Source: a virus
Lineage: Duplodnaviria; Heunggongvirae; Uroviricota; Caudoviricetes
Virus record (IMG/VR): IMGVR_UViG_2909309443_000009
DNA: 26,385 nucleotides
Strand: one strand, 5' to 3'
The notes under the pieces are model-generated. The model was not told where the DNA came from. It saw only the letters and a list, made by a program, of their open reading frames with translations, and made no database searches. Of the stretch, positions 2,958 through 26,385 are shown in pieces. The translations under genes were made by a program, and so were the position numbers. Numbering within the stretch: position 1 is the first letter of the stretch; each line of letters starts with the position of its first letter.

Positions 2958-2983
2958 GGTAGATCTCCCTGACAAAAGCAGGA

Positions 2984-4487: not shown

Positions 4488-4808
4488 CTATAATGTCCAC
4501 ATTAAATCCCCGGGACCTGCCTGCCAGATGCTGGCCCCTGTTAATGATTTTGTTTGATGAACAACCGCCACATTTGCTGGCGATTGTGTTTCAGTTGTTA
4601 CAGTACCGATATCATTCCAGTTAATTGAGATGGAATAGTTCGTTGTTGTAAACGACCGGGGGAAAGTTATGTGTCTTACATTGGTGCCGACAGGAAATCC
4701 AAGATAAACACGCTGAATTATCATTCCTCCAGGTAACATAACCCAGTTAGCACCTTCTCCAAAACCAAGGTTTATGAAAATGCAGAAATAACGAGCAAAT
4801 GGCATCAT
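4488..4808 (-). CDS. Orphan alternative tail-fibre C-terminal cassette (Sv'-like) reading through the right crossover site
   Basis: Begins with the same MMPFARYFCIFIN junction peptide as 2984-3271, then a different C-terminal cassette. Confidence 0.45.
   Translation of the reverse strand: MMPFARYFCIFINLGFGEGANWVMLPGGMIIQRVYLGFPVGTNVRHITFPRSFTTTNYSISINWNDIGTVTTETQSPANVAVVHQTKSLTGASIWQAGPGDLMWTL
4755..4780. repeat. pix/gix/hix-like 26-bp invertase crossover site (right)
   Basis: TTCTCCAAAACCAAGGTTTATGAAAA; compare hixL TTCTTGAAAACCAAGGTTTTTGATAA; ~55 bp upstream of pin. Confidence 0.65.
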
Positions 4809-4834
4809 TCCTGCTTTTACCTGGGGGATCTACC

Positions 4835-5389
4835 ATGCTTATTGGCTATGTTCGCGTATCAACAAATGACCAGAACACCGATCTACAACGTAATGCGTTG
4901 AACTGTGTAGGATGTGAACTGATTTTTGAAGACAAGATAAGCGGTACGAAGTCCGAAAGACCGGGACTGAAAAAACTGCTCAGGACATTATCGGCAGGTG
5001 ACACTCTGGTGGTCTGGAAACTGGATCGGCTGGGGCGTAGTATGCGGCATCTGGTCATTCTGGTTGAGGAGTTGCGCGAACGTGGCGTTAATTTTCGCAG
5101 CCTGACGGATGCTATTGATACCAGCACACCGATGGGGCGTTTTTTCTTTCATGTGATGGGTGCCCTGGCTGAAATGGAACGAGAACTGATTGTTGAACGA
5201 ACAAAAGCTGGACTGGAAGCTGCTCGCGCACAGGGACGAATTGGGGGACGTCGTCCCAAACTTACACCAGAACAATGGGCGCAGGCCGGGCGATTAATTG
5301 CATCAGGCGTTCCTCGCCAGAAGGTGGCGATCATCTATGATGTTGGTATATCGACACTGTATAAGAAGTTTCCGGTCGGAGATAAATGA
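4835..5389 (+). CDS. pin: Pin/Gin/Hin-family serine DNA invertase (full length)
   Basis: 184 aa from MLIGYVRVSTNDQNTDLQRNAL...; complete C-terminal HTH (...VAIIYDVGISTLYKKFPVGDK); RBS GGGGGA upstream. Confidence 0.85.
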   Translation: MLIGYVRVSTNDQNTDLQRNALNCVGCELIFEDKISGTKSERPGLKKLLRTLSAGDTLVVWKLDRLGRSMRHLVILVEELRERGVNFRSLTDAIDTSTPMGRFFFHVMGALAEMERELIVERTKAGLEAARAQGRIGGRRPKLTPEQWAQAGRLIASGVPRQKVAIIYDVGISTLYKKFPVGDK

Positions 5390-5860
5390 AACCGTAGCAT
5401 GTCGTATGCAAGATTGTGCGCGGTTGGCTGGTGAACTTTCGATAGTGCGAGTATTGAATGATTTCCAGCCGTTATCGATTTTATGTATTTTTTGCATGAG
5501 AGGATTTCCATCACCTCCCACCGGCCATCTATGACTTTACGCCACTGTCCCTAGGACTACTATGTACTAGGAGCGGATGTTAAACTCAGACTCGTTTCAG
5601 CTACATTGCGTTTTGAATAATATTCCATCATAATAACTCTTTGAAAAATGTAACCTTTTCATTTATAACACTTATGACTTACTTATCTCATTGGGATATC
5701 GGAGGCGAATACTTAACTATGACAAGCCCGATTATTATGACGCTGGCGATATTATATAGATTGATATTAAAATGTAGGATTAGGTTCTTGCCAAGGTGTC
5801 AAGATTTACAGATAGGTTTAAAACCATATAAATATGTTTTACGGTGAGATGTAATAATTA

Positions 5861-5888: not shown

Positions 5889-5911
5889 TTAATTGTTGGG
5901 AGAAGCTAATC

Positions 5912-8900
5912 ATGGAACCCATATCAATTACAGTGGCAACTTATGTAGCAACTAAACTTATTGATCAATTCATTTCTCAAGAAGGATATAGTTGGATTAA
6001 GAAAGCATTATTCCCCACAGAAAAATATGTGGATAGATTATATCAACTAATTGAAGAGACGGCAATTGAGTTTGAAGAAACATATCCAGTAGAAAGTGGA
6101 GCAATTCCATTTTATCATTCTAAACCATTGTTTGAGATGTTGAATGAGTACATCCTTTTTAAAGAGTTCCCTGACAAAGAGATGTTATTAGACAAGTTCA
6201 AAGAATATCCAAGCGTCACTCCCCCAACTCAACAACAACTCAGCCTTTTTTATGGGATGTTATCATTAAAAATCAATAATTGTTCGAAGTTAAAAAAGCT
6301 ACATATCGAAGAAACGTATAAAGAAAAAATATTCGATATTAATGAAGAGCTCATTCAAGTCAAACTTATTTTACGGTCTATAGATGAGAAACTAACTTTT
6401 CACTTAAGTGATGATTGGTTAAATGAAAAAAATAGTCAAGCAATAGCTGACTTGGGAGGTCGATACACACCCGAACTCAACGTAAAGCTAGAAATAGCAG
6501 AGATATTTGATGGCCTCGGTAGAACTAATGATTTTTCTAAAATATTTTATTCGCATATAGATAGCTTTCTGGTCGCTGGAAAGAAATTACATAGTTGCGA
6601 TGTAATTTCCTCAGAATTATTTGAAATAAACCAGTCCTTAAAAGAAATTTCTGATATATATCAGGAGATTAATTTTTCTAAATTAGATGAAATCCCTATA
6701 AATAAATTTAATAACTATGTTTCTAGCTGCCAGACAGCTATTGGCGGAGCGGTATCAATATTGTGGGAACTCCGAGAAAAGTCAGAGCAAGTAGGTGAAA
6801 CCAAGCATTACAGTGATAAGTATTCATCTACTCTGCGAATGCTTCGGGAATTTGACTATGCGTGCAATGAATTACGTATATTCATTAATTCAACAACAGT
6901 GAAGTTGGCTAACAACCCATTCTTACTTCTCGAAGGAAAAGCAGGAATTGGTAAGTCTCATTTACTGGCTGATGTGATTAAAAATCGAATTGCTTCTGGG
7001 TATCCTTCACTACTCATACTAGGGCAACAACTTACTTCAGATGAATCTCCATGGTCACAAATCTTCAAGAGATTACAGCTTAAAATCACTTCTCGTGAAT
7101 TCCTAGAAAAACTGAATTTATATGGCAAAAAAACAGGAAAAAGAGTCTTAGTTTTTATTGATGCTATTAATGAAGGTAATGGAAATAAATTCTGGAATGA
7201 CAATATTAACAGTTTTGTCGATGAAATCAGATGCTTTGAATGGCTTGGTCTGATAATGTCAGTCAGAACAACATATAGAAATGTAACAATTTCACATGAG
7301 AATGTTGTGCGAAATAATTTTGAAATTCATGAACATATTGGATTCCAGAACGTTGAGTTGGAAGCGGTTAGTCTATTTTATGATTATTACAATATTGAGA
7401 GGCCTTCATCTCCTAACCTTAATCCAGAGTTTAAAAATCCTCTATTTCTTAAGTTATTGTGTGAAGGCATTAAGAAAAATGGTTTAACCAAAGTGCCTGT
7501 TGGATTTAATGGGATTTCAAATATTTTTAACTTTTTAGTTGAAGGGGTAAATAAATCATTAGCATCGCCAAAAAAATATGCATTCGATCCCAGTTTTCCT
7601 CTTGTTAAAGATGCTCTCAATGAAATCATAAAATTCAAATTAGAGATTGGTCGTAATAGTATTTCACTTAAAGATGCTCACTCAGTGGTTCAATCTGTAG
7701 TTAATGATTATGTTGCTGATAAAACCTTCCTCAGCGCCTTGATTGACGAAGGATTATTGACTAAAGGCATAGTGAGAAATGATGATAATTCTACTGAGGA
7801 AGTAGTTTATGTGGCTTTTGAAAGGTTTGATGATCATTTAACTGTTAATTTTTTATTAAATGATGTTGAAAATATCGAAAGTGAATTTAAGCCTGATGGT
7901 CGTCTGAAAAAATATTTTCATGATGAATGTGATTTTTATATAAAATCGGGAATAGTAGAGGCGTTGTCTATTCAATTGCCAGAAAGGTATGAAAAAGAGC
8001 TTTATGAATTTCTGCCGGAGTTCAGCAATAATCTTAAATTACTAGAAGCCTTTATTGATAGCTTGATATGGCGCGATATTAAGGCTATTTATTTCGAAAA
8101 AATTAGACCTTTCATCAATGAACATGTTTTTAAATTTAAAGATAGTTTTGATCATTTCCTCGAGGCAGTGATCTCTATTTCAGGTTTAGTTGGCCATCCC
8201 TTTAATGCTAATTTCTTGCATGATTGGCTAAAAGATTATTCTTTGGCAAATCGAGATTCGTTTTGGACTACAGAACTTAAATATAAATATAGTGAAGACT
8301 CAGCATTTAGGCATCTAATCGATTGGGCATGGGCCAGAACAGATAAAAGCTTTGTTTCGGATGAGTCAATCGAGCTAGTTGCAACTAGTTTATGCTGGTT
8401 TTTAACTTCTAGTAACCGAGAACTTCGAGATTGCTCAACTAAGGCTTTAGTGAGTTTACTCGAGCCAAGAATTCCTGTATTGAGAAAAATAATTGATAAG
8501 TTTTATGGTGTAAATGATCCTTACGTTTGGGAAAGAATATTTGCAGTTGCATTAGGCTGTACATTGCGAACTGATAATATTAAAGAACTAAAATATTTAG
8601 CCGAAACTGTTTACCAAAAGGTATTTTGTTCTAAGTATGTGTATCCAAATATATTACTTAGAGATTATGCTAGAGAGATTATTGAATTTGCTAATCATCT
8701 TGGATTGGAACTTGAAAGCATTGAATTATCCAAGACTAGACCACCCTACAACAGCATTTGGCCTGACAAGATTCCTTCAAAAGAGGAACTAGAGTCCCTT
8801 TATGATAAAGAACCTTATCGGGAACTCTGGAGCTCTATTATGGAAGATGGTGACTTTTCACGATATACTATTGGAACAAATTATAATCATTCTGATTGGT

Positions 8901-10366
8901 CTGGTTGCAAGTTTAATGAAACCCCTGTTGACCGTAAGCAAGTTTTTAAAACTTTCAAATGTAAACTAACTGATCAACAAAAAGACTTGTATGATGCCAC
9001 AGATCCTTTCATTTATGATGATAAATGCGAAGGAATTAAATTTGGTCGTGTGGTCGGTAGAAAAGCACAGGAAGAAATAAAGGCGAGCAAGAAATTATTT
9101 AAGAATTCATTGTCATACGATCTGTTAAGTGAGTTTGAAAATGAAATAGAGCCATACCTGGATCATAATAATAATCTGCTGGAAACTGATAAACACTTTG
9201 ATCTTCGACTAGCTCAACAATTTATATTCAATCGTGTTATAGAGCTTGGTTGGGATCCGGAGAAGCATGGTAATTTTGACCAACAAATAGGAACTGGACG
9301 TGGACGTAGAGAGGCATTCCAAGAACGGATTGGTAAAAAATACCAATGGATTGCTTATTATGAATACATGGCAAGGCTAGCCGATAATTTTACTCGTTTT
9401 GAAGGTTATGGTGACGAACGAAAGGAAAATCCATACCAAGGGCCATGGGAGCCTTACGTAAGAGATATAGATCCCACTATCTTACTTAAAGAAACTGGAA
9501 CGAAAAAAATAAGCAATAAAGAAATGTGGTGGCTTAATGATGAAGTGTTTGATTGGACTTGCTCTAATGAAGACTGGGTTAAAAGTTCTACTACTATAAC
9601 TAATTCATATGCTTTTATTGAAGTTAAAGATGATAATGGTGATGAATGGATAGTATTAGAAAGTCATCCATCATGGAAAGAACCAAAAATTATTGGAAAC
9701 GATGATTGGGGGCACCCACGAAAAGAGGTTTGGTATCAGATCAGAAGTTATATCGTTAAAGTTGAAGAATTTGAAAATTTTAGATGTTGGGCAATAGCTC
9801 AAGACTTTATGGGCAGGTGGATGCCGGAATGTACTGATAGATACCAATTATTTAATAGGGAGTACTATTGGTCCGAAGCATTTAAGTCTTTTAAATCAGA
9901 TTATTATGGTGGATCTGACTGGACTTCGGTAACAGACCGGGAGTCTGGAGCTAAGATAGCTGATGTTAGTGTCACTTCGATTAATTATTTGTGGGAAGAG
10001 GAGTTCGACAAATCAAAAATAGAAACTTTGAATTTTTTGAAGCCTAGTAACTTAATCTTTGAAAAGATGGGATTAAAAAGTGGGGAAGTAGAGGGTAGCT
10101 TCAATGATGAAAATGGAACTATGGTTTGCTTTGCAGCTGAAGCTGTATATGCTTCAAAGCCGCATCTACTTGTTAAAAAAGAACCATTTTTAACAATGTT
10201 AAGGGACAATGGTTTTGAAATCGTTTGGACATTATTAGGTGAAAAGGGCGTTATAGGGGGCTCACTCATATCAAGTCATCATTATGGTCGACAGGAGTTT
10301 AGTGGAGCATTTTATTATGAAGACAGTCAGCTAACAGGAAGTCATAAAACTAGCTTTACGAGATAA
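5912..10366 (+). CDS. Large (1484 aa) STAND/NACHT-like P-loop NTPase with uncharacterised N- and C-terminal modules; candidate antiphage defence protein
   Basis: Uninterrupted ORF with strong RBS; Walker A GKAGIGKS (nt 6935-6958), Walker B VLVFIDAINE (~7145-7177), sensor-1-like LIMSVRT; AT-rich; sits between pin and an att core. Confidence 0.8.
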   Translation: MEPISITVATYVATKLIDQFISQEGYSWIKKALFPTEKYVDRLYQLIEETAIEFEETYPVESGAIPFYHSKPLFEMLNEYILFKEFPDKEMLLDKFKEYPSVTPPTQQQLSLFYGMLSLKINNCSKLKKLHIEETYKEKIFDINEELIQVKLILRSIDEKLTFHLSDDWLNEKNSQAIADLGGRYTPELNVKLEIAEIFDGLGRTNDFSKIFYSHIDSFLVAGKKLHSCDVISSELFEINQSLKEISDIYQEINFSKLDEIPINKFNNYVSSCQTAIGGAVSILWELREKSEQVGETKHYSDKYSSTLRMLREFDYACNELRIFINSTTVKLANNPFLLLEGKAGIGKSHLLADVIKNRIASGYPSLLILGQQLTSDESPWSQIFKRLQLKITSREFLEKLNLYGKKTGKRVLVFIDAINEGNGNKFWNDNINSFVDEIRCFEWLGLIMSVRTTYRNVTISHENVVRNNFEIHEHIGFQNVELEAVSLFYDYYNIERPSSPNLNPEFKNPLFLKLLCEGIKKNGLTKVPVGFNGISNIFNFLVEGVNKSLASPKKYAFDPSFPLVKDALNEIIKFKLEIGRNSISLKDAHSVVQSVVNDYVADKTFLSALIDEGLLTKGIVRNDDNSTEEVVYVAFERFDDHLTVNFLLNDVENIESEFKPDGRLKKYFHDECDFYIKSGIVEALSIQLPERYEKELYEFLPEFSNNLKLLEAFIDSLIWRDIKAIYFEKIRPFINEHVFKFKDSFDHFLEAVISISGLVGHPFNANFLHDWLKDYSLANRDSFWTTELKYKYSEDSAFRHLIDWAWARTDKSFVSDESIELVATSLCWFLTSSNRELRDCSTKALVSLLEPRIPVLRKIIDKFYGVNDPYVWERIFAVALGCTLRTDNIKELKYLAETVYQKVFCSKYVYPNILLRDYAREIIEFANHLGLELESIELSKTRPPYNSIWPDKIPSKEELESLYDKEPYRELWSSIMEDGDFSRYTIGTNYNHSDWSGCKFNETPVDRKQVFKTFKCKLTDQQKDLYDATDPFIYDDKCEGIKFGRVVGRKAQEEIKASKKLFKNSLSYDLLSEFENEIEPYLDHNNNLLETDKHFDLRLAQQFIFNRVIELGWDPEKHGNFDQQIGTGRGRREAFQERIGKKYQWIAYYEYMARLADNFTRFEGYGDERKENPYQGPWEPYVRDIDPTILLKETGTKKISNKEMWWLNDEVFDWTCSNEDWVKSSTTITNSYAFIEVKDDNGDEWIVLESHPSWKEPKIIGNDDWGHPRKEVWYQIRSYIVKVEEFENFRCWAIAQDFMGRWMPECTDRYQLFNREYYWSEAFKSFKSDYYGGSDWTSVTDRESGAKIADVSVTSINYLWEEEFDKSKIETLNFLKPSNLIFEKMGLKSGEVEGSFNDENGTMVCFAAEAVYASKPHLLVKKEPFLTMLRDNGFEIVWTLLGEKGVIGGSLISSHHYGRQEFSGAFYYEDSQLTGSHKTSFTR

Positions 10367-10749: not shown

Positions 10750-10795
10750 ATTCGTAATGCGAAGGTCGTAGGTTCGACTCCTATTATCGGCACCA
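10750..10795 (+). other. 3' 46-nt fragment of tRNA-Thr (thrW-like, anticodon CGU): att core, not an intact tRNA
   Basis: ATTCGTAATGCGAAGGTCGTAGGTTCGACTCCTATTATCGGCACCA; upstream sequence is not tRNA-like. Confidence 0.75.
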
Positions 10796-10809
10796 TTTAA
10801 ATCAATAAG

Positions 10810-11587
10810 TTACCTCACATTTAAGTAAACTACGTTCTCCTCTTGTGCCGTATTTGTGCCATTGCGACTTATAATCGCATCGATTTTGCTCGCGTGCTCG
10901 GTGAGATGCCCGGCTGAAAGGTGGGCGTATCTTTGAACCATTTCGAGAGTTTCCCATCCTCCCATCTCTTTAAGTGCAAGAAGAGAGACACCGGACTGAA
11001 CCAGCCAGCTTGCCCAGGTATGCCTCAGATCATGGAAGCGGAAGTTGCTAATGCCTGCCCGCTTTAACGCTCCCTTCCATGCCTTGTTGCTGTCGGTTCT
11101 CATTTTCCTTACCGCTGCTGTTTTTGTTCCGTCGCTTCGGTAGGCAGGTTTGGTGTGGACAAATACCCATCTCTTATGGAGCCCCTGCTGTTTTCTTAAT
11201 ATCTGGCATGCGGTTTCGTTAAGAGGAACTCCAATCGCATTGCCAGCTTTTGTTTCATCAGGGTGCATCCATGCCATTTTCTTATCCAGATCGACCTGTG
11301 ACCACTCAAGGTCTGTAACGTTGGAACGGCGAAGGCCTGTCGTGATTGCAAACATGACCACAGGGAAGAAGTGAGGAGCAATTTCTGCAAACAGGCGCTT
11401 CGATTCCTCCTCTGTAAGCCATCTGATTCGTCCATTCTTAACGCGTGGTGTTGATATTTTGGGCGCCCTGTCAAGCCATCCCCATTCAACAGCCATATTG
11501 AGAATAGCGCGAAGTATTGCCAGATGCCGCGTCTTCGTTCCTTTGCTTGCCAGCTTTGGTTTATACTCCGGCACTGGCTTGCCAAGC
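10810..11587 (-). pseudogene. int: Tyrosine integrase, C-terminal ~255 codons, separated from its upstream part by IS66 insertion
   Basis: Catalytic motifs [13 protein letters not shown] and RYAHL present; aligns to residues ~130-387 of the intact integrase at 22883-24046; reading frame continues through the target duplication into the IS. Confidence 0.75.
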
Positions 11588-11617
11588 GTAAGCGACTCGT
11601 CAGAACCGTATTGATAT

Positions 11618-13189
11618 TTACTGAGAGCTCAGATCAACTTTCCAGGGCAACAGATCGCGTACCCGGTTTGCCGGCCAGTCCTGGATATGTTCAATGACGT
11701 AACGCAGCCACTTTTCTGACTCCACATTGTTCAGACGGCATGTGCCGATCAGCGAGTACAACACCGCCGCATGTTCACCACCGCTGTCGGAACCCGCGAA
11801 CATCCAGTTTTTCCGGCCTACGGCCACTCCCCGTAAGGCGTTCTCTGCGATGTTGTTGTCGATTTCCACCCAGCCATTACTGCAGTACACGTTCAGTGCA
11901 TCCCACTGTTTCAGCAGGTATGCGAACGCTTTTGCCGTATCTGAGTGACGCGACAGTGTTTTCATCTGTTGCTGTATCCAGTCATACAGTGACTGCATCA
12001 GTGGCGCGGCTCTGGCTTTTCTTGCCGCCAGACGCTGTTCTGCTGAACAGCCCCGGACCTCTGCCTCGATGGCATACAGTTCACCGATACGCTGCAGGGC
12101 TTCCGTGGTGATGTAGGTGGGCGCTCTTGCATGCACATCGTGGATTTTTCTCCGGACATGAGCCATACACGCGGCTTCCGTTATTCTGCCGGATTCGTAT
12201 AACGCCCGGTAACCACCGTAAGCATCGGCCTGAAGCACACCGCTGTAACCGGCCAGGTGATTTTGTGGATGGATACCTTTCCGGTCCGGACTGTACGCGA
12301 ACCAGACCGCCGGGGGCATCTGTGAACCGGCGTTACGGTCATCACGGACGTAGACCCACAGCCGGGCTGTCCGGGTTTTACCGCTGCCCGGCTCCTGGAC
12401 CGGGACGGGGATATCATCAGCATGGACTTTACCGGGCATCAGCACATACTGGCGCAGGACGTCATACAGCGGCTCCAGCAGTTCAGCAACAGCACCTGTC
12501 CAGCGCCCCAGTGTGGCACGGCTCAGCTCCACGCCCTGACGACGGTATATTTCTGACTGGCGGTATAACGGCAGATGGTCTGCATATTTCCCGGTGACAA
12601 CATGGGCCAGAAGCCCCGCTCCGGCATAACTGCGTGCAATGGGTTTTGAAGGTACTGGTGCCTGCACGATATGGTCGCACCGGCAACAGGCCTGTTTCGG
12701 ACGTTGTGTTTCGATAACCTTAAAGGCGCTGCTGATAAGCTCCAGTTGCTCTGACACATCACATCCCAGAGAACTGAGTTCACCACCACAGGCAGGACAG
12801 CATTCCTCTTCCGGCCGGATAACCCGGGTTTCACGGGGAAGTGAGGCCGGTAACGGTTTACGGGCTGAAGACTGGCGCAGGGGGGATGGCAGTACCGGGT
12901 CATATTGCTCACCCAGCGTTTCTGCCATTTCTTCCTGAAGTGCGCTGATTCGCTCCTGTGCTTCCTGTATCTGCCGTTCGGTTTTTGCGCGAAGTTTTTC
13001 TGAGCTTTTACCGAACTGCATACGTTGCAGTTTCGCAACCAGCGCCTTCAGCCGGTTGATTTCGGAAGCATAAGCCGCCACCCGCTGTGAGAGCAGGCGG
13101 TTGTATTCAGCCATCTGGCGTATGGTGTCCTGTTGCGTCTGCAACAGTGCCCGCAGGCGGGCGTTCTCATGAGCAAGTGAGGTGTCCAT
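11618..13189 (-). CDS. tnpC: IS66-family transposase TnpC
   Basis: 523-aa ORF with N-terminal coiled-coil/leucine-zipper-like region and Cys-rich segment typical of IS66 TnpC. Confidence 0.8.
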
Positions 13190-13208
13190 ATCCTCACTTT
13201 ACAACGGG

Positions 13209-13556
13209 TTATATGCGGATTCCAGCGCGTTCCGTTCGTTTCGGGTGCTTCCAGTTGATACCTTCAAGAAGCATGGATAACTGAGCCGGAGTAAGGTGCA
13301 CCTTGCCGTCACGGGTGACTGGCCAGACGAAGCGGCCCCGCTCCAGGCGTTTGGTGAAGAGGCACAGTCCGTCACTGTCAGCCCACAACACTTTTATCTG
13401 GTCACCCCGGCGTCCGCGGAAGATGAACAGGTGTCCGGAGAACGGGTCATCCTTCAGGACGTTCTGAACTTTTGATGCCAGGCCGTTAAAGCCATTTCGC
13501 ATATCGGTGATACCTGCAACCAGCCAGATACGCGAACCTGCAGGGAGAGATATCAT
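13209..13556 (-). CDS. tnpB: IS66-family accessory protein TnpB (Orf2)
   Basis: 115-aa ORF MISLPAGSRIWLVAGITDMRNGFNGL... immediately upstream of tnpC. Confidence 0.75.
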   Translation of the reverse strand: MISLPAGSRIWLVAGITDMRNGFNGLASKVQNVLKDDPFSGHLFIFRGRRGDQIKVLWADSDGLCLFTKRLERGRFVWPVTRDGKVHLTPAQLSMLLEGINWKHPKRTERAGIRI

Positions 13557-13680
13557 CAGTGGCTGCTCCCTTTTATTTCGCGGATAAGTGTCTGTAATAA
13601 CGCCGGCGTCAGTTTACCTTTAAGCCTGAGAGTTCCGGCCGGCAGAACCAGCTCACAACACAGACTGTCGGACGGTGTAT

Positions 13681-14232
13681 TTATCTGCTCTGGTTCCTGT
13701 GCGGGGCCGGGATTTTATTATCCGGCTCCGGCGTTAACGTCACGGGAAGCAGTGCCGGCATATTTTTTCCGGAAGGCAGCAGGCCACCTTTCCGGTATTG
13801 ATGGCGCCAGTTGAAGAGCAGGTTATCGTTGATTCCGTTTTCCCGGGCGATCTGCGCCACACAGGCTCCGGGCTGCAGTGACTGCTCCACTAAGGCGATT
13901 TTAAACTCATAAGGGAAGTTGGGCCGCCGGGGACGTTTTTTTACCACGGGGGCTTCGGATATAACGGTGCTTTCAGGACGTACGACTGGTATCGTGGAAA
14001 ATTGTCCGTAAAGGCAGGCATCAAGTTCCTGCTCCGACATGCCTGCGGGCAAAGGCCACGAAAGGCCAGCTCTCCGAAAGCGCACGAACATACTACAAAC
14101 TGTTGATTTTGGTACACCCAGGCGACGCCCGGCCACAACCCGGGGTAAATGTTCTTCAAAGTGAAGACGTAAAGCTTCAGTGATCCAGGTCCGGTGTTTC
14201 ATACGATAGTGTCCATTAAAAATGATGGACAT
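13681..14232 (-). CDS. tnpA: IS66-family accessory protein TnpA (Orf1), HTH-containing; N-terminal extent uncertain
   Basis: C-terminal part RPRRPNFPYEFKIALVEQSLQPGACVAQIARENGINDNLLFNWRHQYR is a transposase-type HTH; 124-bp gap before tnpB is atypical. Confidence 0.55.
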   Translation of the reverse strand: MSIIFNGHYRMKHRTWITEALRLHFEEHLPRVVAGRRLGVPKSTVCSMFVRFRRAGLSWPLPAGMSEQELDACLYGQFSTIPVVRPESTVISEAPVVKKRPRRPNFPYEFKIALVEQSLQPGACVAQIARENGINDNLLFNWRHQYRKGGLLPSGKNMPALLPVTLTPEPDNKIPAPHRNQSR

Positions 14233-16030: not shown

Positions 16031-16968
16031 CCCCTGAATCCTGCCGGGATCTGGCTGTAGTCCACGTTGTCGTAACTGGCTTTGAAGTACGGGTCTTCGC
16101 GTTTTTCGGTGTACGTGCTGACGGACGGCGATAAGCGCAGGGAAAGCTCATCCCATTTTTCCCGCAGCTTCGACGGGCTGAGCACGTTACGGCACCAGAA
16201 CGGATCGCGACTGACGCGGCTGTACATCTCGCAGATTTGTTTATGAGTACGACCATCCTGCACACACATCAGGCGAATTTCGTTTGCCCAGGCTGTCCAG
16301 TTCGGTTCTTTGGGACGAACCACCTCGCCGTCACATTCGGCGGCCTGCTCGTACAGGGCGATGATTTTTTTCCAGAGCCACTGTGCGCAGGTCAAATCAT
16401 CCTGCGTTCCCCACTGGCGCTTTTTAGGGCTGAATACAACCGCATCAGGATGGCGAGTTAAAAACTCCTGTTCAGCCGTCTGCGTGTCCGGTTGCGAAGC
16501 GTCCGGACGAGAAGTTTTTTTATCTGACGGATCATGTTTTGATTTTACTGACGGATCCCCGCCAGATTCTGACGGGTGAAAACCCGCTTTTTTGCCAGAT
16601 TTCGACGCATCAAATTTTGACGGGTCAGATTTTGATGCGTCAGATTTTGACGGGTCAGAATCTGACAGTTGAGAAAATGCCGCTGCCTGAAGCTTCGCAA
16701 CGTTAAGCTGATAAACATTCGACGCATTGCGGTTACCCTGGCGACGCGCCTTACGCGTTAACCAGCCTTCTGCTTCCAGCCGTGCGATAGCCGTTCTGAC
16801 GGTACTCATCCCCGCGCCAATCTGACGGGCAATGGTTTCAATTGATGGCCAGCACACACCTTCGTCATTACTGAAATCAGCCAGGCGGGCCATAATTGCC
16901 ACGCTGGATAATTTCATGCCTGACGCTGCGCAACCATCCCATACATAGCCGGTTAATTTAGTGCTCAT
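16027..16968 (-). CDS. Lambdoid replication initiator (O-like) with internal origin iterons
   Basis: N-terminal HTH (MSTVRTAIARLEAEGWLTRK); central low-complexity SDSDPSKSDASKSDPSKFDASKS encoded by tandem DNA repeats; position after the CII-like gene. Confidence 0.65.
   Translation of the reverse strand: MSTKLTGYVWDGCAASGMKLSSVAIMARLADFSNDEGVCWPSIETIARQIGAGMSTVRTAIARLEAEGWLTRKARRQGNRNASNVYQLNVAKLQAAAFSQLSDSDPSKSDASKSDPSKFDASKSGKKAGFHPSESGGDPSVKSKHDPSDKKTSRPDASQPDTQTAEQEFLTRHPDAVVFSPKKRQWGTQDDLTCAQWLWKKIIALYEQAAECDGEVVRPKEPNWTAWANEIRLMCVQDGRTHKQICEMYSRVSRDPFWCRNVLSPSKLREKWDELSLRLSPSVSTYTEKREDPYFKASYDNVDYSQIPAGFRG
16524..16668. repeat. Iteron array (about 8 tandem ~15-bp repeats, GATTTTGACGGGTCA / GATTTTGATGCGTCA) inside the O-like gene: putative prophage replication origin
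   Basis: Direct repeats read in sequence at 16524-16668. Confidence 0.6.
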
Positions 16969-17316: not shown

Positions 17317-17864
17317 GCGTTAGTTTCTCCACAGTCACGACACGCCACGGCGCCCGGAGCTGCACACTCGCGGGCGTCATTACTTTCTGAAATGCAAAAG
17401 ATTTTGTAGACCAGTGCTGCATGCTCCTGCAGCTTCGAAATTGAGAGATATAGCTCGTCGTTAATTGCAGTTTTCTCATGCGGTTCCACTACACCGTCTT
17501 CGATTGCTGAACGAATCTGTTTTGAATAACTGCCGATCTGTTCAATGACCTCCAGCAGGCGTTGGTTGATATCGGCGTTGTCCACATCCTCGACATCAGG
17601 AAGAGACACAAAGACGCCATTTGCAGACTGCGCCACAGCGTCAGCAATGAAGTGAGTTCCACCAGCACGTTGCAAAATCATTGCCCATCCCAGCGGGAAA
17701 ATCTGATCGCCATCGGCACGAAGGCGGTTAAATAATGCGTTCTCTGTTACATCCAGCCAGTCAGCAGCTTCAGCGTACCCCCCCGGCAACGCTGCGATAG
17801 TTTTTCTGACAGCTTTCACGTACCACTCAGGCTGTTTTTCTACTTTCCAGTGATGCTTACCCAC
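17313..17864 (-). CDS. CII-like / YdaT-family prophage regulatory protein
   Basis: 183-aa ORF immediately downstream of cro in the early-right operon; family assignment by position and general resemblance only. Confidence 0.45.
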
Positions 17865-19001: not shown

Positions 19002-19184
19002 AATTTTATCTTTTGTTCCAGACCAACTACAGGATTACAACAAAATCTGGTTGCAACACGGTGCATGTGTCGTAAGCAGTCAGTAAATGTCAAAAACGAA
19101 CAGGCAGGACGCCCACGAAGTAGCCGCCTGGGGCATATGAAGTCCAGGATGATTCGTTGAGTCATGTTGTGCCACTAGGCACTC

Positions 19185-19481
19185 ATGTTAAAGCAGGTGT
19201 ATGAAATGAAAGTCCAGATTTTAAACAATAACTGTGAAGTCGTTTGGTCATACGACATAGCCGCCCCTGTAGATCAGAGCGGCGATAGCTGGACCAATGG
19301 GAAACATCAGATTATGGCTGGAGTTGTGTTCTCTTTACGCCGTGCTTTGGAACAGGCTGAAGTATTTCCATCAGACCCTGAATGGAAATGGCCTTTTTCT
19401 ATTTGTCCAAATTCGGAGAGCACATTTCAGAAAATTGGTCAGAAAGTCGCACTCGAAGAGCATCAGCCAACTGTTTCCTGA
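19185..19481 (+). CDS. Hypothetical prophage early-left protein
   Basis: 98-aa ORF with RBS (GCAGGTG) before ATG; no recognisable motif. Confidence 0.35.
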   Translation: MLKQVYEMKVQILNNNCEVVWSYDIAAPVDQSGDSWTNGKHQIMAGVVFSLRRALEQAEVFPSDPEWKWPFSICPNSESTFQKIGQKVALEEHQPTVS

Positions 19482-21334: not shown

Positions 21335-21461
21335 TTTCATTACTGCAAATGCCCCTGCGGGGGCATTTATGGAAACGTAATTTACTCAATAATCGCCGGA
21401 TGGTGAGGGATTCTTTTTACCAGAATTCAGCGCGGTGCAGCGCATATACGTGGAGAACAAA

Positions 21462-21998
21462 ATGTCATTTATTAAAACTTTTTCCGGGAAGCATTTTTAT
21501 TATGACAGGATAAATAAAGACGACATCGATATTAACGATATCGCGGTTTCCCTTTCAAATATCTGTCGCTTTGCCGGTCATCTTTCGCACTTCTACAGCG
21601 TCGCCCAACATGCGGTTCTTTGCAGCCAGCTGGTGCCGCAGGAATTTGCTTTTGAAGCGTTAATGCATGATGCAACAGAAGCGTATTGCCAGGACATTCC
21701 CGCACCACTGAAACGCCTTCTTCCTGACTATAAACAAATGGAAGAAAAAATAGACTCCGTAATCCGTGAGAAATACGGATTACCCCCAGTTATGAGTACG
21801 CCCGTGAAATATGCCGATCTCATCATGCTGGCAACCGAACGCCGCGATCTCGGGCTTGATGATGGCTCTTTCTGGCCTGTACTGGAAGGTATCCCGGCAA
21901 CAGAGATGTTCAACGTGATTCCACTGGCACCGGGCCATGCCTACGGGATGTTTATGGAACGCTTTAACGAGTTATCGGAGTTACGCAAATGCGCATGA
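21462..21998 (+). CDS. HD-domain phosphohydrolase (YfdR-like 5'-deoxynucleotidase)
   Basis: HD motif (HFYSVAQHAV ... LMHDATEAY); ATG at 21462 with RBS GGAG; 178 aa. Confidence 0.65.
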   Translation: MSFIKTFSGKHFYYDRINKDDIDINDIAVSLSNICRFAGHLSHFYSVAQHAVLCSQLVPQEFAFEALMHDATEAYCQDIPAPLKRLLPDYKQMEEKIDSVIREKYGLPPVMSTPVKYADLIMLATERRDLGLDDGSFWPVLEGIPATEMFNVIPLAPGHAYGMFMERFNELSELRKCA

Positions 21999-22656: not shown

Positions 22657-23006
22657 TGGAGCCATACAGCCTCACACTCGATGAGGCCTGTCATTTTCTC
22701 AAGATATCCAGACCGACTGCCATTAACTGGATACGCACAGGGCGTCTTCAGGCAACACGCAAAGATCCCACTAAGAATAAATCTCCTTACCTCACAACAC
22801 GACAAGCCTGCATTGCGGCTCTTCAGTCTCCGCTGCATACTGTCCAGGTGAGCGCGGGTGATGGCATAACAGAGGAAAGAAAATGTCACTCTTCCGCAGA
22901 GGTGAAATATGGTACGCCAGTTTCACATTGCCGAACGGTAAAAGATTTAAACAGTCTCTTGGAACAAAGGACAAAAGGCAGGCGACAGAACTCCATGACA
23001 AGCTAA
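22656..23006 (+). CDS. xis: Excisionase (AlpA/Xis-type HTH); 3' extent uncertain
   Basis: [36 protein letters not shown] typical of excisionases; RBS GAGGTG; in-frame ORF runs to 23006, overlapping the int start at 22883. Confidence 0.5.
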
Positions 23007-24046
23007 AGGCTGAAGCATGGCGGGTCAGCAAACTTGGTGAAATACCTGATATAACGTTCGAGGAAGCGTGTGTCAGGTGGCTTGAAGAGAAAGCACATAA
23101 AAAATCACTGGACGATGACAAAAGCCGGATCGGATTCTGGCTTCAACATTTCGCAGGAATGCAACTAAGAGACATTACTGAATCAAAAATTTATTCAGCA
23201 ATGCAGAAAATGACGAACCGGCGTCATGAGGAAAACTGGAAACTCAGGGCAGAAGCATGCAGAAAAAAAGGGAAACCTGTTCCAGAATACACGCCAAAAC
23301 CAGCGTCCGTTGCAACGAAGGCTACGCATCTTTCATTTATAAAGGCCCTACTAAGAGCCGCAGAGCGTGAATGGAAAATGCTGGATAAGGCACCAATTAT
23401 TAAAGTGCCTCAACCAAAGAATAAACGGATCCGCTGGCTGGAGCCCCATGAAGCACAAAGGCTGATTGATGAATGTCCGGAGCCATTAAAGTCTGTTGTT
23501 GAATTTGCACTGGCAACAGGCTTAAGACGCTCGAACATCATCAACCTTGAATGGCAACAAATAGATATGCAGCGCCGGGTGGCATGGATAAACCCGGAAG
23601 AGAGTAAATCAAACCGCGCAATCGGCGTTGCGCTGAATGATACTGCATGTCGCGTTTTGAAAAAACAAATCGGGAATCATCACCGTTGGGTATTTGTGTA
23701 CAAGGAAAGCTGTACCAAACCAGACGGAACGAAAGCGCCAACAGTAAGGAAGATGCGGTATGACGCAAACACAGCCTGGAAAGCAGCGCTGAGACGGGCT
23801 GGTATTGATGATTTCAGATTTCACGACTTGAGACACACCTGGGCAAGTTGGCTGGTTCAAGCCGGAGTCCCGTTGTCAGTGTTACAGGAAATGGGAGGCT
23901 GGGAGTCTATCGAAATGGTTCGTCGATATGCTCACCTTGCACCTAATCACCTTACCGAACACGCACGGCAAATAGACTCGATCCTGAACCCATCGGTCCC
24001 AAATTCGTCCCAGTCAAAAAATAAGGAAGGTACTAATGATGTGTAA
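22883..24046 (+). CDS. int: Lambdoid tyrosine integrase (intact)
   Basis: 387 aa; RBS AGGAAAG; catalytic R...HxxR...Y motifs ([24 protein letters not shown]); ends 14 bp before the att core. Confidence 0.9.
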
Positions 24047-24060
24047 CTTATTGATTTAAA

Positions 24061-24109
24061 TGGTGCCGATAATAGGAGTCGAACCTACGACCTTCGCATT
24101 ACGAATGCG
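24061..24109 (-). other. 3' 49-nt fragment of tRNA-Thr (thrW-like) in inverted orientation: second att core
   Basis: TGGTGCCGATAATAGGAGTCGAACCTACGACCTTCGCATTACGAATGCG; the 14-bp spacer to the integrase stop (CTTATTGATTTAAA) is identical to the spacer at 10796-10809. Confidence 0.75.
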
Positions 24110-24197
24110 TAAATTGATCTTGTAAAATCAATACCTATCGAATTTAAATGGATTTTTTGCCACAATATTGCCACAGTTCGTTAGGAATCAGACAGAA

Positions 24198-25271
24198 ATG
24201 GCGACTATACGCAAACGTGGTAACTACCAATGGGAAGCTCAAATCCGTAAACGTGGTTTTCCCTCTCAAACCAAAACCTTTAACACCAAAGTAGAAGCAG
24301 AAGCTTGGGCCAAAATGATCGAGTCAGAAATGGCGAGAGGAGTTTGGCTTAGCCGCAGCGAAGCGGAATCTACGACATTGTATGAAGCCCTAACGCGATA
24401 TGAAAAAGAGATTGTTCCCGACAAAAAAGGGGCAGTGCAAGACCGATCATTGGTGCGGATACTAAAAGGCACTCAGCTGGCGAAAAACTATATGGCCAGC
24501 ATCAGGAGTGCCGATGTCGCCAAGCTGAGAGATGAATGGTTGAAAATCTATGCTCCTGCAACCGTTTTAAGGCGTTTGGCCTTACTTTCTCATGTATTCA
24601 ATGTTTCGCGGAAAGAATGGGGCATGGAGAGCCTGCTGAACCCCGTAGAGGCCATTCGTAAACCCCAACCCAAGAACTCCAGGACCAGACGCCTAGAAGC
24701 GCTGCCTGTAGTTTCTGAGAAAACCGGTGTTACGTCAGGAAAGCAAATAGCCAACGAGATCGAACATATCATCGCCGCAACACATTCATTAGTATTGCCA
24801 GCAATCATTCTTCTGGCGTTAGAGACAGCCATGCGCCGTAGCGAAATCGCAGAGCTTCGATGGCGCTTTATCGATCTTGATCGGCGAGTTGCACATCTGC
24901 CGGATACTAAGAATGGTAATGCCCGCGATGTCCCTTTATCAACGAAAGCCATTACGATACTGTCCAGTCTCAAGGAACATTCTAAGCCAGCTGCTGATAA
25001 GGTTTTTGATATGCGTGCAGACGCGATTACCCGAGCTTTTGACCGAGCTGTAAAACGAGCCAGAGAACGATACGAGAAAACAAACTCATTATGTGATGAA
25101 TCTTTCCTTAAAGATTTAAGATTTCATGACCTTCGACATGAAGCAACTTCTCGACTTGCTGAAATTTTCCCTATGCATGAACTAACCAAAATTACAGGAC
25201 ATAAAGATCCAAGAATGCTAATGCGGTATTATCATCCAAAAGCTGAAGATTTGGCGTTAAAGTTGAAATAA
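24198..25271 (+). CDS. Tyrosine site-specific recombinase / island integrase (second family)
   Basis: MATIRKRGNYQWEAQIRKRGF N-terminus typical of island integrases; catalytic LRFHDLRHEATSRL and MRYYH; ATG 24198 with RBS AGGA. Confidence 0.8.
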   Translation: MATIRKRGNYQWEAQIRKRGFPSQTKTFNTKVEAEAWAKMIESEMARGVWLSRSEAESTTLYEALTRYEKEIVPDKKGAVQDRSLVRILKGTQLAKNYMASIRSADVAKLRDEWLKIYAPATVLRRLALLSHVFNVSRKEWGMESLLNPVEAIRKPQPKNSRTRRLEALPVVSEKTGVTSGKQIANEIEHIIAATHSLVLPAIILLALETAMRRSEIAELRWRFIDLDRRVAHLPDTKNGNARDVPLSTKAITILSSLKEHSKPAADKVFDMRADAITRAFDRAVKRARERYEKTNSLCDESFLKDLRFHDLRHEATSRLAEIFPMHELTKITGHKDPRMLMRYYHPKAEDLALKLK

Positions 25272-25280
25272 GGACGTTGT

Positions 25281-26171
25281 ATGGATTATAAAAATAAGTT
25301 AGTTGATGCATCACCAAAATTAAACAACCCTCAACTATTGGCTATAATATACTTAATACCTTTTGGATACTTGATTGTAGAAAACCCATTATGGCTAGAA
25401 AATATATACATTGCCGCTCCAATTTTCCTATCATCTATAGCTTTATTAACCAGTGTATACATAGGATATCGTGATTTATTAAATAAAGTATTTAATAATG
25501 CAGTAGTTAAATGGGGCGTAACTGGCTTTACATATTCCGTATGCTTATGGATCGCAAAGTTTAAGCTTGACATAGCTTATGGTATAGTCCCAGAAAACCT
25601 TAATTACTCGACATTAGCTTATGCTTTCATGCTCTCATTTCCAATAGGGGCAATGATTTGTGCAATTACAGTCTATATATACATATTTTTGCGAGATGTA
25701 TCCCCAGCAAAAATAGTAATATCCTCTATGATTTCAGTATATATTGGAAGCTTGGCTCAACATCATATACAGATGAACAATCTTCCTGAAAAAATAATAT
25801 TAATAGGACTTATAATTATGGTCCCCTATAACATGGTCAATTTAGCTAGTTCATTAGTTATTAAAAGGAAATTTAATTTTAATCGTTTAGTATCAGGCTT
25901 ATCCCTTTTTGCTGTGTCAGTTGCTCTTTTTATTATTAGCATGACAGCAATGAAATACATTGAAAGATTTCAAGAAAAGTTTATTTTTCTCGATGCAAGA
26001 ACATCTACGACATGTGGTAGCTCAGAAAGCAAATCTCTTTATATTGAAAAAAATGAAAATCAGTGTTATAAAATATCAGGAAATAAATTCTCGGAGTTAA
26101 GACTAACTCTTGTAGATAAAAACATCTTGAATATAAATAATAAAGGCACTTCAACTTATGAACAAAAATAA
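25281..26171 (+). CDS. AT-rich polytopic membrane protein (about 7 predicted TM helices), unknown function
   Basis: 296 aa with multiple ~20-residue hydrophobic stretches; strongly AT-rich; immediately downstream of the integrase. Confidence 0.5.
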   Translation: MDYKNKLVDASPKLNNPQLLAIIYLIPFGYLIVENPLWLENIYIAAPIFLSSIALLTSVYIGYRDLLNKVFNNAVVKWGVTGFTYSVCLWIAKFKLDIAYGIVPENLNYSTLAYAFMLSFPIGAMICAITVYIYIFLRDVSPAKIVISSMISVYIGSLAQHHIQMNNLPEKIILIGLIIMVPYNMVNLASSLVIKRKFNFNRLVSGLSLFAVSVALFIISMTAMKYIERFQEKFIFLDARTSTTCGSSESKSLYIEKNENQCYKISGNKFSELRLTLVDKNILNINNKGTSTYEQK

Positions 26172-26385
26172 CCCTGCTAATTCATTTTCTATAGAAGCAA
26201 GGAAAGAAGCTTTTCGGAGAGCTGAAGCCAGTCTTTTTTTATCAAGTAAAGATCCCAAAGGCTCCTCATTTTTTAATGAAATAAAAACTAAGGTAATCAA
26301 TGGAGAGCTAACCTATGAAGAGGCAAAGAGAGAAGTATTAAATTATCACATTGAACAATCTAAAAATCAAAATAAAAGAGGCTAA
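26158..26385 (+). CDS. Small helical protein resembling VbhA-type antitoxins of Fic-family toxins (tentative)
   Basis: 75 aa; EARKEAFRRAEASLFLS ... INGELTYEEAKREVL pattern; overlaps the upstream gene end; stop codon is the last triplet of the window. Confidence 0.3.
   Translation: MNKNNPANSFSIEARKEAFRRAEASLFLSSKDPKGSSFFNEIKTKVINGELTYEEAKREVLNYHIEQSKNQNKRG

Follow-up and report, generated by a model that had tools for sequence, protein, structure and literature searches.

A hypervariable membrane-protein gene and a VbhA-like small gene beside the integrase of a mobilizable thrW island

The integrase end of a 13.6-kb island in thrW

The window (the whole stretch of 26,385 nucleotides analysed here) ends in three genes read in the same direction. 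The first encodes a tyrosine integrase (24198..25271, + strand; PF00589, E=1.6e-26; phrog_1 integrase, E=1.9e-49), which is 357 aa long from the ATG at 24198 and 367 aa from the TTG at 24168, where the longest ORF begins. After a gap of 9 nt comes the gene of an inner-membrane protein of 296 aa with seven transmembrane helices (7-TM; 25281..26171, + strand; defined by its ORF and an AF2 model), and this gene overlaps by 14 nt that of a helical, cytoplasmic protein of 75 aa (26158..26385, + strand). A preliminary description of this DNA took the small ORF to be cut off by the window edge; it is complete, its TAA being the last three bases of the window, and only the DNA downstream is missing. 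The same description proposed one operon for the two overlapping ORFs, and the overlap together with the short gap to the integrase gene indicates that all three genes are packed as a single one. The membrane-protein gene is AT-rich (30% GC vs 45% for the integrase gene), and the seven long helices of the AF2 model agree with the polytopic protein expected earlier. All three ORFs are real genes: the integrase is 91-95% identical between island variants, with dN/dS of 0.06-0.11, and the membrane and small ORFs are under purifying selection, with dN/dS values (0.17-0.19, and 0.09 at long distance, respectively) well below 1. Profile scans of the three proteins (Pfam, NCBIfam, PADLOC and PHROGs) recognised the integrase and, apart from it, no more than two PHROGs of unknown function.

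Ahead of the integrase gene lies the distal att copy (24043..24109, - strand), recognized both as a direct repeat of thrW and as an inverted repeat. Positions 24060-24109 are the 3' 48 nt of the tRNA-Thr gene thrW plus 2 nt, and in E. coli E8, which is 100% identical to the window and in which the genes beyond its end are annotated, they form a perfect 50-nt direct repeat with the intact thrW, 13,618 bp apart. The three genes and this att copy make up the integrase-proximal end of a 13.6-kb island in thrW of E. coli, in keeping with the earlier report of a second island start, and the inverted att core that accompanied that report is also there, since 24043-24106 is a 64-nt perfect inverted repeat of 10750-10813 in the window. 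PGAP places a 112-nt 'tRNA-Ser' at this att copy; it is a tRNA fragment, because ARAGORN finds no tRNA there and the Rfam tRNA model scores 22.3 bits against a threshold of 29. The integrases on either side of the att copy had been ascribed to different families; they are instead different lineages of one superfamily, the tyrosine recombinases, with about 30% identity over the catalytic domain.

Complete genomes show that the small gene is followed by a convergent 70-aa ORF and then by trbL, trbK, trbJ and traJ, and not by the Fic toxin gene that had been predicted immediately downstream. The 70-aa ORF and trbL come next in islands of E. coli and Dickeya and in metagenomic ones alike. The traJ gene (NikA-like, E=5.5e-23 for the island TraJ), trbJ, a trbK-like lipoprotein gene (a 57-aa lipoprotein-like ORF between trbJ and trbL) and trbL run opposite to the integrase gene, all of them outside the window, and beyond this block the island carries variable defence-type cargo. 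A 13-bp hairpin between the convergent small and 70-aa genes is split by the window end, with its first arm at 26374..26385 (no strand assigned); the complete terminator-like structure, seen at 17375-17405 of the locus L001, corresponds to window positions 26374-26404.

Islands having only TrbJ, TrbK and TrbL have been described as IncP-mobilized elements (PMC5704250; bioRxiv 10.64898/2026.01.12.698999). As the thrW-bounded island carries traJ-trbJ-trbK-trbL, it is an integrative mobilizable element of the GIsul2, IncP-island or PIME kind. It shares with these elements (PMC5704250; PMC9376610; bioRxiv 10.64898/2026.01.12.698999) a tyrosine integrase at one end and att direct repeats (here PF00589 and the 50-nt repeat around 13.6 kb), TraJ plus TrbJ-TrbK-TrbL homologues in the absence of a full type IV secretion system (no complete mating apparatus in the PGAP annotation of the complete island), large accessory regions with defence genes, including a second one beside the integrase, and close copies across several genera. 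The insertion site differs, being thrW here and guaA for GIsul2, and the contents of the slot beside the integrase (the 7-TM protein and a VbhA-like protein devoid of the characteristic Glu) are undescribed for GIsul2 and PIME elements. Membership in the PIME class as defined is incomplete, because alpA and repA are neither annotated nor matched by Pfam in the E8 island, although hypothetical island proteins of 420, 93 and 85 aa could be their divergent equivalents. As it stands, the island would fail the PIME search criteria.

A rare seven-helix protein in a swap-prone slot

A useful AF2 model of the membrane protein (pLDDT 77.6, pTM 0.74) was obtained from an alignment to which distant relatives had been added; that from the shallow alignment was useless (pLDDT 40). 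It has seven long helices and, in addition, a small beta domain. The count of seven is based on these helices and on loop charges, a crude hydropathy scan having under-called them, and the positive-inside rule and the model together predict a cytoplasmic N-terminus and an external C-terminus. The family alignment has only three invariant columns (D238, C245 and C262) and seven near-invariant ones. A loop at residues 95-110 and the C-terminal beta domain are conserved, and both are predicted to be periplasmic; the most variable parts are the cytoplasmic loops and TM5-6. Conservation towards the periplasm and variability towards the cytoplasm are not expected from a simple arms race with phage proteins of the periplasm and count against that kind of defence; they would agree just as well with a conserved target in the periplasm or with an enzymatic site.

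Pfam, NCBIfam and PADLOC gave no match for this protein, if one sets aside as noise a weak NCBIfam similarity to a His-Xaa-Ser system protein (E=0.08). None of the window proteins matched PADLOC-DB v2, nor did three other 7-TM alleles, the 465-aa protein described below or orf70, and a Foldseek search with the model yielded nothing in PDB or BFVD (best E 0.38 and 0.16; TM below 0.27). The lack of a PADLOC match for any 7-TM allele and of a structural relative is a point against a defence function.

The family is very rare, with 18 clusters in 1.84 billion protein representatives. Word-indexed homology searches retrieved only close relatives, with at least 84% identity for the 7-TM protein and 21 matches for the small one. 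A scan of species-representative genomes yielded just three loci, of which one lies on a contig that is probably a contaminant. In tblastn searches, phage records gave nothing for two 7-TM alleles or for the small protein, and plasmids gave one distant match; blastn of two prophage 7-TM alleles against E. coli genomes gave none.

Comparison of related islands shows that the position right after the integrase gene is a swap-prone accessory slot. In backbones otherwise 92-100% identical it holds a 7-TM protein of group A (the window allele), one of group B (about 28% identical to the former) or, in the loci L060 and L062, an unrelated 465-aa membrane/coiled-coil protein. Relative to the E. coli island, the integrase is 91-95%, TrbJ 83-100% and TrbL 74-99% identical, the 7-TM protein only 28-30%. 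In general, 7-TM alleles are about 30% identical while the genes flanking them are 86-100% identical. The same is true of two P2-like prophages, where gpJ, gpW, gpV, gpS, gpR and the lysozyme are 86-98% identical and the intervening 7-TM protein 32%.

In these prophages the 7-TM gene stands alone between gpV and gpS, the 'orf30' site, which is one of the three known moron regions of P2 (PMC6823313). When compared with P2 orf30 morons and with the defence hotspots of prophages and satellites (PMC6823313; PMC9122126), the prophage homologues hold exactly this slot and, like orf30 morons, are AT-rich, lie on the strand opposite to the tail genes and turn over completely between near-identical phages. 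In contrast, the window gene sits in an island rather than in a phage, and the family matches no PADLOC model. Other homologues lie beside NotI restriction-modification genes and an AAA_15 ATPase gene, on a plasmid-like contig with resolvase, CcdAB and ParA as neighbours, and on a Pantoea megaplasmid that encodes a TIR protein alongside. In every context the gene is 14-24 GC points below its flanks. One homologue is found in an ordinary chromosomal neighbourhood, after ychF, which counts against the role proposed below. We know of no anti-phage activity for this family.

The small gene does not always accompany the 7-TM gene, being absent beside it at L008-L013, L016-L019, L021 and L037; at L016-L018 the 7-TM gene is intact and the island otherwise intact as well. 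The occurrence of the 7-TM protein intact and alone in prophages, on plasmids and in these three islands counts for its autonomy. Conversely, the small protein also follows the unrelated 465-aa protein of L060 and L062, and its identity is 60-80% where that of the 7-TM protein is 28%.

The 75-aa protein and its resemblance to Fic antitoxins

The small protein had been likened to VbhA, and PGAP does name it 'antitoxin VbhA family protein'; the resemblance is, however, statistically weak. With PF18495 (VbhA) the protein reaches 12.4 bits (E=0.16), where the gathering cutoff is 25.9, and the match spans only profile positions 20-45; 4/10 members of the family give a hit (best E=0.049). By hhalign against 15 true VbhA proteins the E-value was 0.029 and the probability 1.7%, and VbhA (3SHG, 3ZC7) was not among the PDB entries that a sequence/profile search returned. 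All true VbhA relatives carry PF18495, whereas no member of the small-protein family has a precomputed Pfam match. A SHOCT-like profile, PF22746, did somewhat better at residues 40-58 (19.1 bits, E=9.7e-4), matching 9/10 family members (best E=1.7e-4; 16.6 bits for the L060 homologue), and it too stayed below its cutoff of 27. The motif GELTYEEAK of the small protein is weakly VbhA-like or SHOCT-like.

Class I Fic antitoxins bear the motif (S/T)xxxE(G/N), the Glu of which (E24 in VbhA) blocks productive ATP binding (PMC3667792). The hhalign alignment covers the whole VbhA domain and pairs R15, A22, S25, L28, P33 and G49 with R10, A17, S20, L23, P28 and G42 of VbhA, so that SLFLSS (S25 to S30, with S29 at the critical position) is set against SQRLEG. 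The aligned full-length members have Ser where the inhibitory Glu would be, the partial sequence P0013 has Phe, and the motif ends in S, G or N. Ser is kept even by divergent homologues (SLYLSS in L020, SLYLSN in L060) that are 60-69% identical to the window protein. Compared with VbhA, FicA and YhfG (PDB 3SHG, 3ZC7; PF18495), the small protein is of similar size, helical and weakly alignable over its full length (R..., A.AS..L.(G)..P and 'GEL'). It differs in having Ser for Glu and hydrophobic residues for the Q-R of the motif, in its sub-threshold PF18495 match, and in the position of its gene, which is 3' of a membrane-protein gene rather than 5' of a toxin gene, in a Fic-free island. The proposed check for a Fic/Doc gene on the extended sequence found none among the 10 other island proteins, and the Fic motif HxFx(D/E)GNGRxxR does not occur in the six frames of 63 related loci. 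The reading as a Fic antitoxin fails, also by the terms of refutation set in the preliminary description, because Ser replaces Glu, the Pfam score is far below threshold and there is no Fic gene or motif; we infer that the protein is not a Fic antitoxin, the Fic-inhibiting Glu having been lost or never present.

Possible functions

In our view, the membrane protein is most likely a stand-alone factor of exclusion or defence acting at the level of the envelope. It would work alone at the periplasmic face of the inner membrane, through a conserved core made up of TM3, loop 3-4 and a C-terminal domain that is probably disulfide-bonded, and would hinder the entry of foreign DNA (ejection of phage genomes, conjugative transfer or both) or otherwise protect the host of its element. 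The 75-aa protein would act in the cytoplasm as an accessory to the integrase operon and may modulate the expression or the activity of whatever occupies the slot. New genes of exclusion and defence have been discovered repeatedly by following such wholesale swapping of alleles. Hypervariable exclusion proteins of the inner membrane are known in TraS of the F plasmid, Eex of SXT/R391 and the Sie proteins of phages (SieA of P22, gp15 of HK97), all of them single-gene polytopic proteins whose alleles diverge far beyond the flanking genes. The 7-TM protein resembles them in being a single-gene polytopic product of mobile elements with alleles that outpace their flanks. Unlike them, it is larger (seven helices plus a periplasmic Cys domain), exposes to the periplasm its most conserved and not its most variable parts, and has no sequence or fold similarity that we could find. 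Taken as a whole, the reading of this region as the end of a mobilizable island with a swap-prone slot, a stand-alone 7-TM factor of exclusion or defence and a non-Fic accessory is one that we put forward tentatively.

Two other explanations are unlikely, to a similar degree. In the first, the 7-TM protein serves lysogenic conversion: as an enzyme on the periplasmic side it would alter O-antigen, LPS, ECA or peptidoglycan and thereby, indirectly, the phage receptors. Phage gtr, oac and wzy genes are AT-rich, hyper-divergent and placed next to int/att or in moron sites, and the serotype-converting phages of Shigella use thrW; the 7-TM gene, AT-rich and hyper-divergent, lies beside int/att or in prophage moron sites as well, and conserved polar residues of its product (K77, Y100, E105, Y109, D238 and Y254) point towards the periplasm. 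Nevertheless, the protein shows no sequence or fold likeness to GT-C enzymes, acyltransferase_3, Wzy, O-antigen ligase or PEtN transferases, its few invariant and near-invariant columns speak against an enzyme, and there are no partner genes of the gtrA/gtrB type.

The second relates both genes to the mobility of the island, the small protein being a recombination directionality factor or regulator of the integrase operon and the 7-TM protein an accessory of conjugation or entry exclusion for IncP-type transfer. Both genes belong to the integrase operon, no alpA-type excisionase is detectable in the island, the mildly basic small protein is conserved along with the backbone, and the island's trbJ, trbK and trbL are presumed to remodel the mating apparatus of the helper (PMC5704250). 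Yet the 7-TM family is also present in P2-like prophages and other non-conjugative contexts, the small protein matches no DNA-binding domain, and its gene is missing from the otherwise intact islands L016-L018. For this last reason its role as the island excisionase was down-weighted.

Slightly less probable still is that the two proteins form a toxin-antitoxin or abortive-infection pair, in which a lethal membrane effector is checked or triggered by the small protein; a pair of the latter kind had been the fallback of the preliminary description. The 14-nt overlap stands and would couple the translation of the two genes, most islands carry them together, with 7-TM alleles of two very divergent groups, and effectors of abortive infection are often membrane proteins (PMC9122126). 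This reading is weakened because both genes are also found apart. Intact copies of the 7-TM gene that lack the small gene occur in P2-like prophages, on plasmids, at chromosomal sites and in islands L016-L018, so that the 7-TM protein is not lethal by itself; the small gene in turn also follows the gene of the 465-aa protein. Neither obligatory pairing nor co-variation was observed, the small protein being conserved at 60-80% where the 7-TM protein falls to 28%, and the cytoplasmic parts of the latter are short and its least conserved.

An orphan-immunity role of the 7-TM protein, directed against a bacteriocin or a CDI or T6SS effector that acts on the membrane or periplasm, appears improbable. 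Hyper-divergent alleles in conserved flanks on mobile elements are typical of immunity genes, and this polytopic protein has just such alleles; against this, it exceeds the typical size of immunity proteins, and no toxin, CDI, T6SS or bacteriocin gene lies near its gene in about 10 independent contexts. Finally, it is very improbable that the small protein is, as its PGAP name and its alignment over the whole domain would have it, a class I Fic antitoxin (VbhA/FicA/YhfG type) of a toxin encoded by a chromosomal fic gene or brought by the conjugative helper, given the Ser at the inhibitory position, the low PF18495 score and the absence of a Fic gene beside it in any context.

These results correct a database label, as some 250 identical or near-identical Enterobacterales proteins named 'antitoxin VbhA family' lack the residue for Fic inhibition and never adjoin a Fic gene. 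They also place the thrW island among the newly recognised mobilizable elements that hijack IncP transfer, even though it escapes the published search criteria, and they disclose a very rare family of membrane proteins, without known fold relatives, whose alleles are swapped wholesale between near-identical islands and P2-like phages. It is conceivable, if rather doubtful, that the family represents a new single-gene kind of envelope exclusion or defence in which the alleles set the specificity and the small protein is an attachable cytoplasmic modulator. If this were true, unrelated mobile elements (IncP-hijacking islands, P2-like phages and plasmids) would keep the 7-TM gene in dedicated, swap-prone slots, specificity would come from hyper-divergent alleles sharing a conserved periplasmic core with a disulfide bond, and islands would attach a Glu-less VbhA/SHOCT-like modulator to whichever membrane effector occupies the slot.

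The integrase end of a thrW island

The window DNA is from E. coli. Strain E8 and five sister genomes match 24000-26385 with 100% identity, and among 5,426 complete E. coli genomes there are 47 in which at least 80% of the stretch is present. Just upstream of the integrase gene, at 24060-24109, we found a perfect 50-nt match to the 3' end of thrW (tRNA-Thr), and in E8 the identical 50 nt recur 13,618 bp onward, within the intact thrW beside proBA. The 24198-26385 region thus belongs to a thrW island of 13.6 kb, of which it forms the integrase end. This confirms the second island start proposed in the preliminary description, as well as its inverted att core: 24043-24106 and 10750-10813 form a perfect inverted repeat. 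ARAGORN detected no tRNA in the window and the Rfam tRNA match, at 22.3 bits, fell short of the threshold (29); the 112-nt "tRNA-Ser" of RefSeq/PGAP (24061-24172, minus strand) consists of the thrW 3' fragment (the att repeat) plus island DNA and is likely an annotation artefact.

The region contains a tyrosine integrase gene (int, 24198-25271, plus strand; PF00589, E=1.6e-26), followed 9 nt past its stop codon by a 296-aa ORF with an AAGGA Shine-Dalgarno ahead of it (25281-26171, plus strand; the 7-TM protein) and by a 75-aa ORF (26158-26385, plus strand; the small protein). The last two overlap, as already noticed, the overlap being 14 nt long. The 75-aa ORF had been taken to be cut off by the window edge, but it is complete, because its TAA stop codon forms the final three bases of the window. 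The GC content is about 45% in int versus 30-32% in the other two ORFs, and purifying selection is evident in both from dN/dS values of 0.17-0.19 (membrane gene) and, in comparison with a distant homologue, 0.09 (small gene). Both are real genes.

Past the window, a convergent 70-aa ORF (orf70) is followed by trbL, a 57-aa lipoprotein-like ORF at the trbK position, trbJ and traJ, the product of the latter being NikA-like (E=5.5e-23). Further on there are small ORFs and iteron-like repeats, and then unannotated cargo that includes a PD-(D/E)XK nuclease. It is known that TraJ plus TrbJ/K/L only characterizes the GIsul2/IncP-island type of mobilizable element (PMC5704250), and a 2026 preprint generalises such islands as IncP-dependent "PIMEs", reservoirs of immune systems that may carry a second accessory region beside the integrase (bioRxiv 10.64898/2026.01.12.698999). 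No alpA or repA was detectable in the thrW island, which would therefore fail the PIME search criteria of the preprint. The island represents a variant of the GIsul2/PIME-type mobilizable element, a kind already known.

Several features of this island were observed in L001, the collected locus that continues beyond the window. Between a 93-aa gene and a HigA-like HTH gene lie three tandem 22-nt repeats (21378-21443) and three dispersed 20-nt repeats (21525-21731), which may serve the island as iterons or operators (oriV/oriT region). The ORF at the trbK position (19087-19260, minus strand; 56-57 aa) displayed 52% identity among island variants where trbJ displayed 83%, a divergence consistent with an entry-exclusion specificity determinant. 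The conserved and acidic orf70 (17408-17620, minus strand) had no family match; it closes the trb operon, converges with the small gene on a common hairpin and diverges along with the cassette directly after int (59-97% identity). In the Lonsdalea locus L004 (10237-12653) the island seemingly consists only of int, the 7-TM gene and the small gene, with about 2.4 kb without called genes between the latter and proA, and represents either a minimal or a decayed form of the element.

The thrW region overall is a stack of mobile elements with defence genes. Across the att copy lies the integrase of a KpLE1/CPS-53-like prophage (22883-24046), about 30% identical to the island integrase in the catalytic domain. 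The inverted 64-nt copy at 10750-10813, which comprises the integrase 3' end plus a 3' part of thrW, adjoins an N-terminally truncated integrase split by IS66 (tnpA/B/C; 10809-11594, 11617-14232). The inverted int-att copies on both sides of the KpLE1/CPS-53-like prophage remnant suggest an inversion or two head-to-head insertions. A long AT-rich stretch (5911-10365, plus strand; 31-37% GC) is an Avs2 (AVAST type 2) anti-phage gene according to RefSeq for the identical E8 sequence. Two pinE invertase genes, together with tail-fibre or tail-fibre-assembly fragments, mark the region of two 671-nt inverted repeats (2373-3043 and 4749-5419; 95% complementary, about 1.7 kb apart), and what lies between these repeats looks like an invertible host-range segment. 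Four overlapping 30-nt repeats of 15-nt period (16596-16670), within the HTH/replication-initiator-like gene of the prophage, are probably origin iterons of the lambdoid-type prophage remnant.

The small protein and Fic antitoxins

The PGAP name of the small protein coincides with the preliminary description, which noted a resemblance to VbhA-type antitoxins and, if the protein is one, expected its toxin partner immediately downstream. Support for the name is thin. The Pfam VbhA model matched the protein with 12.4 bits (cutoff, 25.9) and over its second half only, and a SHOCT-like model scored slightly higher, still below threshold (19.1 bits; cutoff, 27). NCBIfam and PADLOC yielded zero matches, and sequence and profile searches of the PDB did not retrieve VbhA. 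For the profile comparison, we collected 59 true VbhA proteins, all with PF18495, the VbhA sequence itself having been confirmed against PDB 3SHG and 3ZC7. The profiles of VbhA and the small-protein family aligned over 51 columns with E=0.029 and a probability of 1.7%, and the conserved VbhA residues R10, A17, S20, L23, P28 and G42 were matched. The inhibitory motif that defines class I Fic antitoxins such as VbhA is (S/T)xxxE(G/N) (PMC3667792). At this place the small protein reads SLFLSS, homologues merely 60-69% identical to it read SLYLSS and SLYLSN, and all aligned full-length members have Ser at the position of the inhibitory Glu. Instead of a toxin, orf70 and trbL lie downstream; a Fic gene is absent there from E. 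coli, Dickeya and Lonsdalea as well as from all metagenomic copies, none of ten other island proteins had Fic/Doc matches, and a six-frame search for the Fic signature in all 63 collected loci yielded nothing. The Fic-antitoxin reading is thus refuted on the terms in which it was put forward, and a canonical Fic antitoxin is highly improbable. The small protein may at most be a Glu-less distant relative of the VbhA/SHOCT helical-hairpin type, similar to VbhA in outline, yet departing from it in every membership feature tested. This corrects a misleading annotation.

The 7-TM family and its allele turnover

The 7-TM protein had no match in Pfam, NCBIfam or PADLOC, and its PHROG has no assigned function. 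HMMER, run exhaustively against 1.84 billion representative proteins, disclosed only 18 clusters. Once these distant relatives were added, the pLDDT of the AlphaFold model rose from 40 to 77.6 (pTM 0.74), and the seven long helices of this model, followed by a three-stranded beta domain, agree with the AT-rich polytopic protein (30-32% GC) initially described. Foldseek found no relative of the model in the PDB or BFVD, and the family is without a characterised relative. The N-terminus has a charge of +3, loops 2-3 and 4-5 have +2, and loop 6-7 reads KRKFNFNR, growing to 11-12 Lys/Arg in other alleles. These charges predict a consistent topology, in which the N-terminus would be inside and the C-terminal domain periplasmic. 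Across ten allele types, TM3 with loop 3-4 (pairwise identity, 45-50%) and the C-terminal domain, where D238, C245 and C262 are invariant, form the conserved core, and identity elsewhere is 10-25%. The two invariant cysteines of the predicted periplasmic domain suggest a disulfide.

The order int, 7-TM gene, small gene, orf70 and trbL is repeated in E. coli, Dickeya, Lonsdalea, Pantoea, Enterobacter and many metagenomes, with identities to the E. coli island of 91-95% (int), 83-100% (trbJ) and 74-99% (trbL). The island 7-TM proteins form two groups only 28-30% identical to each other, and two loci (L057, L059) with trbJ and trbL 100% and 99% identical to those of E8 nevertheless carry the other group. 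In L060 and L062 (trbK, 98-100%; trbL, 98-99%), the place after int is occupied by an unrelated 465-aa membrane-anchored coiled-coil protein, with the small protein still encoded downstream, and L016-L018 have the 7-TM gene and lack the small gene. These results show that int is followed by an accessory slot prone to swapping and that the small protein is not tied to the 7-TM protein. The 465-aa protein (L060, 3584-4981; same position in L062) starts with TM helices and has a long coiled coil and, at its C-terminus, an acidic domain; it had no Pfam or PADLOC match and is a second unknown cassette for this slot; trbJ, trbK and trbL of its islands are 98-100% identical to those of the E. coli island.

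Two further 7-TM alleles were found in P2-like prophages, each solitary and placed between gpV and gpS in opposite orientation. This site, the "orf30" position, counts among the three moron regions known in P2-like phages (PMC6823313). In two such prophages gpJ, gpW, gpV, gpS, gpR and lysozyme are 86-98% identical, but the 7-TM proteins only 32%. Other homologues adjoin a NotI restriction-modification system plus an AAA_15 ATPase, a resolvase, CcdAB and ParA (plasmid-like contig), or IS66 remnants; one is downstream of a TIR-domain protein in a Pantoea megaplasmid, and one is in an ordinary chromosomal site, after ychF. In all contexts, the GC content of the gene is 14-24 points below that of its flanks. 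The 7-TM family is thus a stand-alone gene of mobile elements that undergoes wholesale allele replacement in two unrelated element kinds. A 604-nt Microbacterium contig (L007, NZ_CACSKB010000163.1) encoding the enterobacterial protein (97% identity) is almost certainly a contamination of that assembly.

Possible functions

The likeliest reading, though a tentative one, is that the 7-TM protein acts at the envelope, where it may keep out incoming DNA (phage ejection and/or conjugation) or protect the host otherwise. We infer such an envelope-level factor because prophages, islands and plasmids have this single polytopic inner-membrane protein, with its predicted conserved periplasm-facing core, at moron or hotspot positions. 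TraS, Eex and the phage Sie proteins are hypervariable exclusion proteins, and may be its closest functional analogies.

The most conserved parts are the predicted periplasmic ones, a pattern for which a catalytic site or a target conserved in the host would account equally well, so that a conversion enzyme or an immunity protein keeps some probability. An envelope-modifying conversion enzyme is unlikely. A role in the mobility of the island itself is similarly doubtful, since prophages have 7-TM homologues and some islands lack the small gene. Somewhat less probable still is that the 7-TM and small proteins constitute a toxin-antitoxin or two-gene abortive-infection pair, as each gene occurs independently and the two do not co-vary. 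An immunity protein seems improbable. A new mechanism is not demonstrated by these results; the 7-TM family is a well-delimited candidate that is cheap to test.
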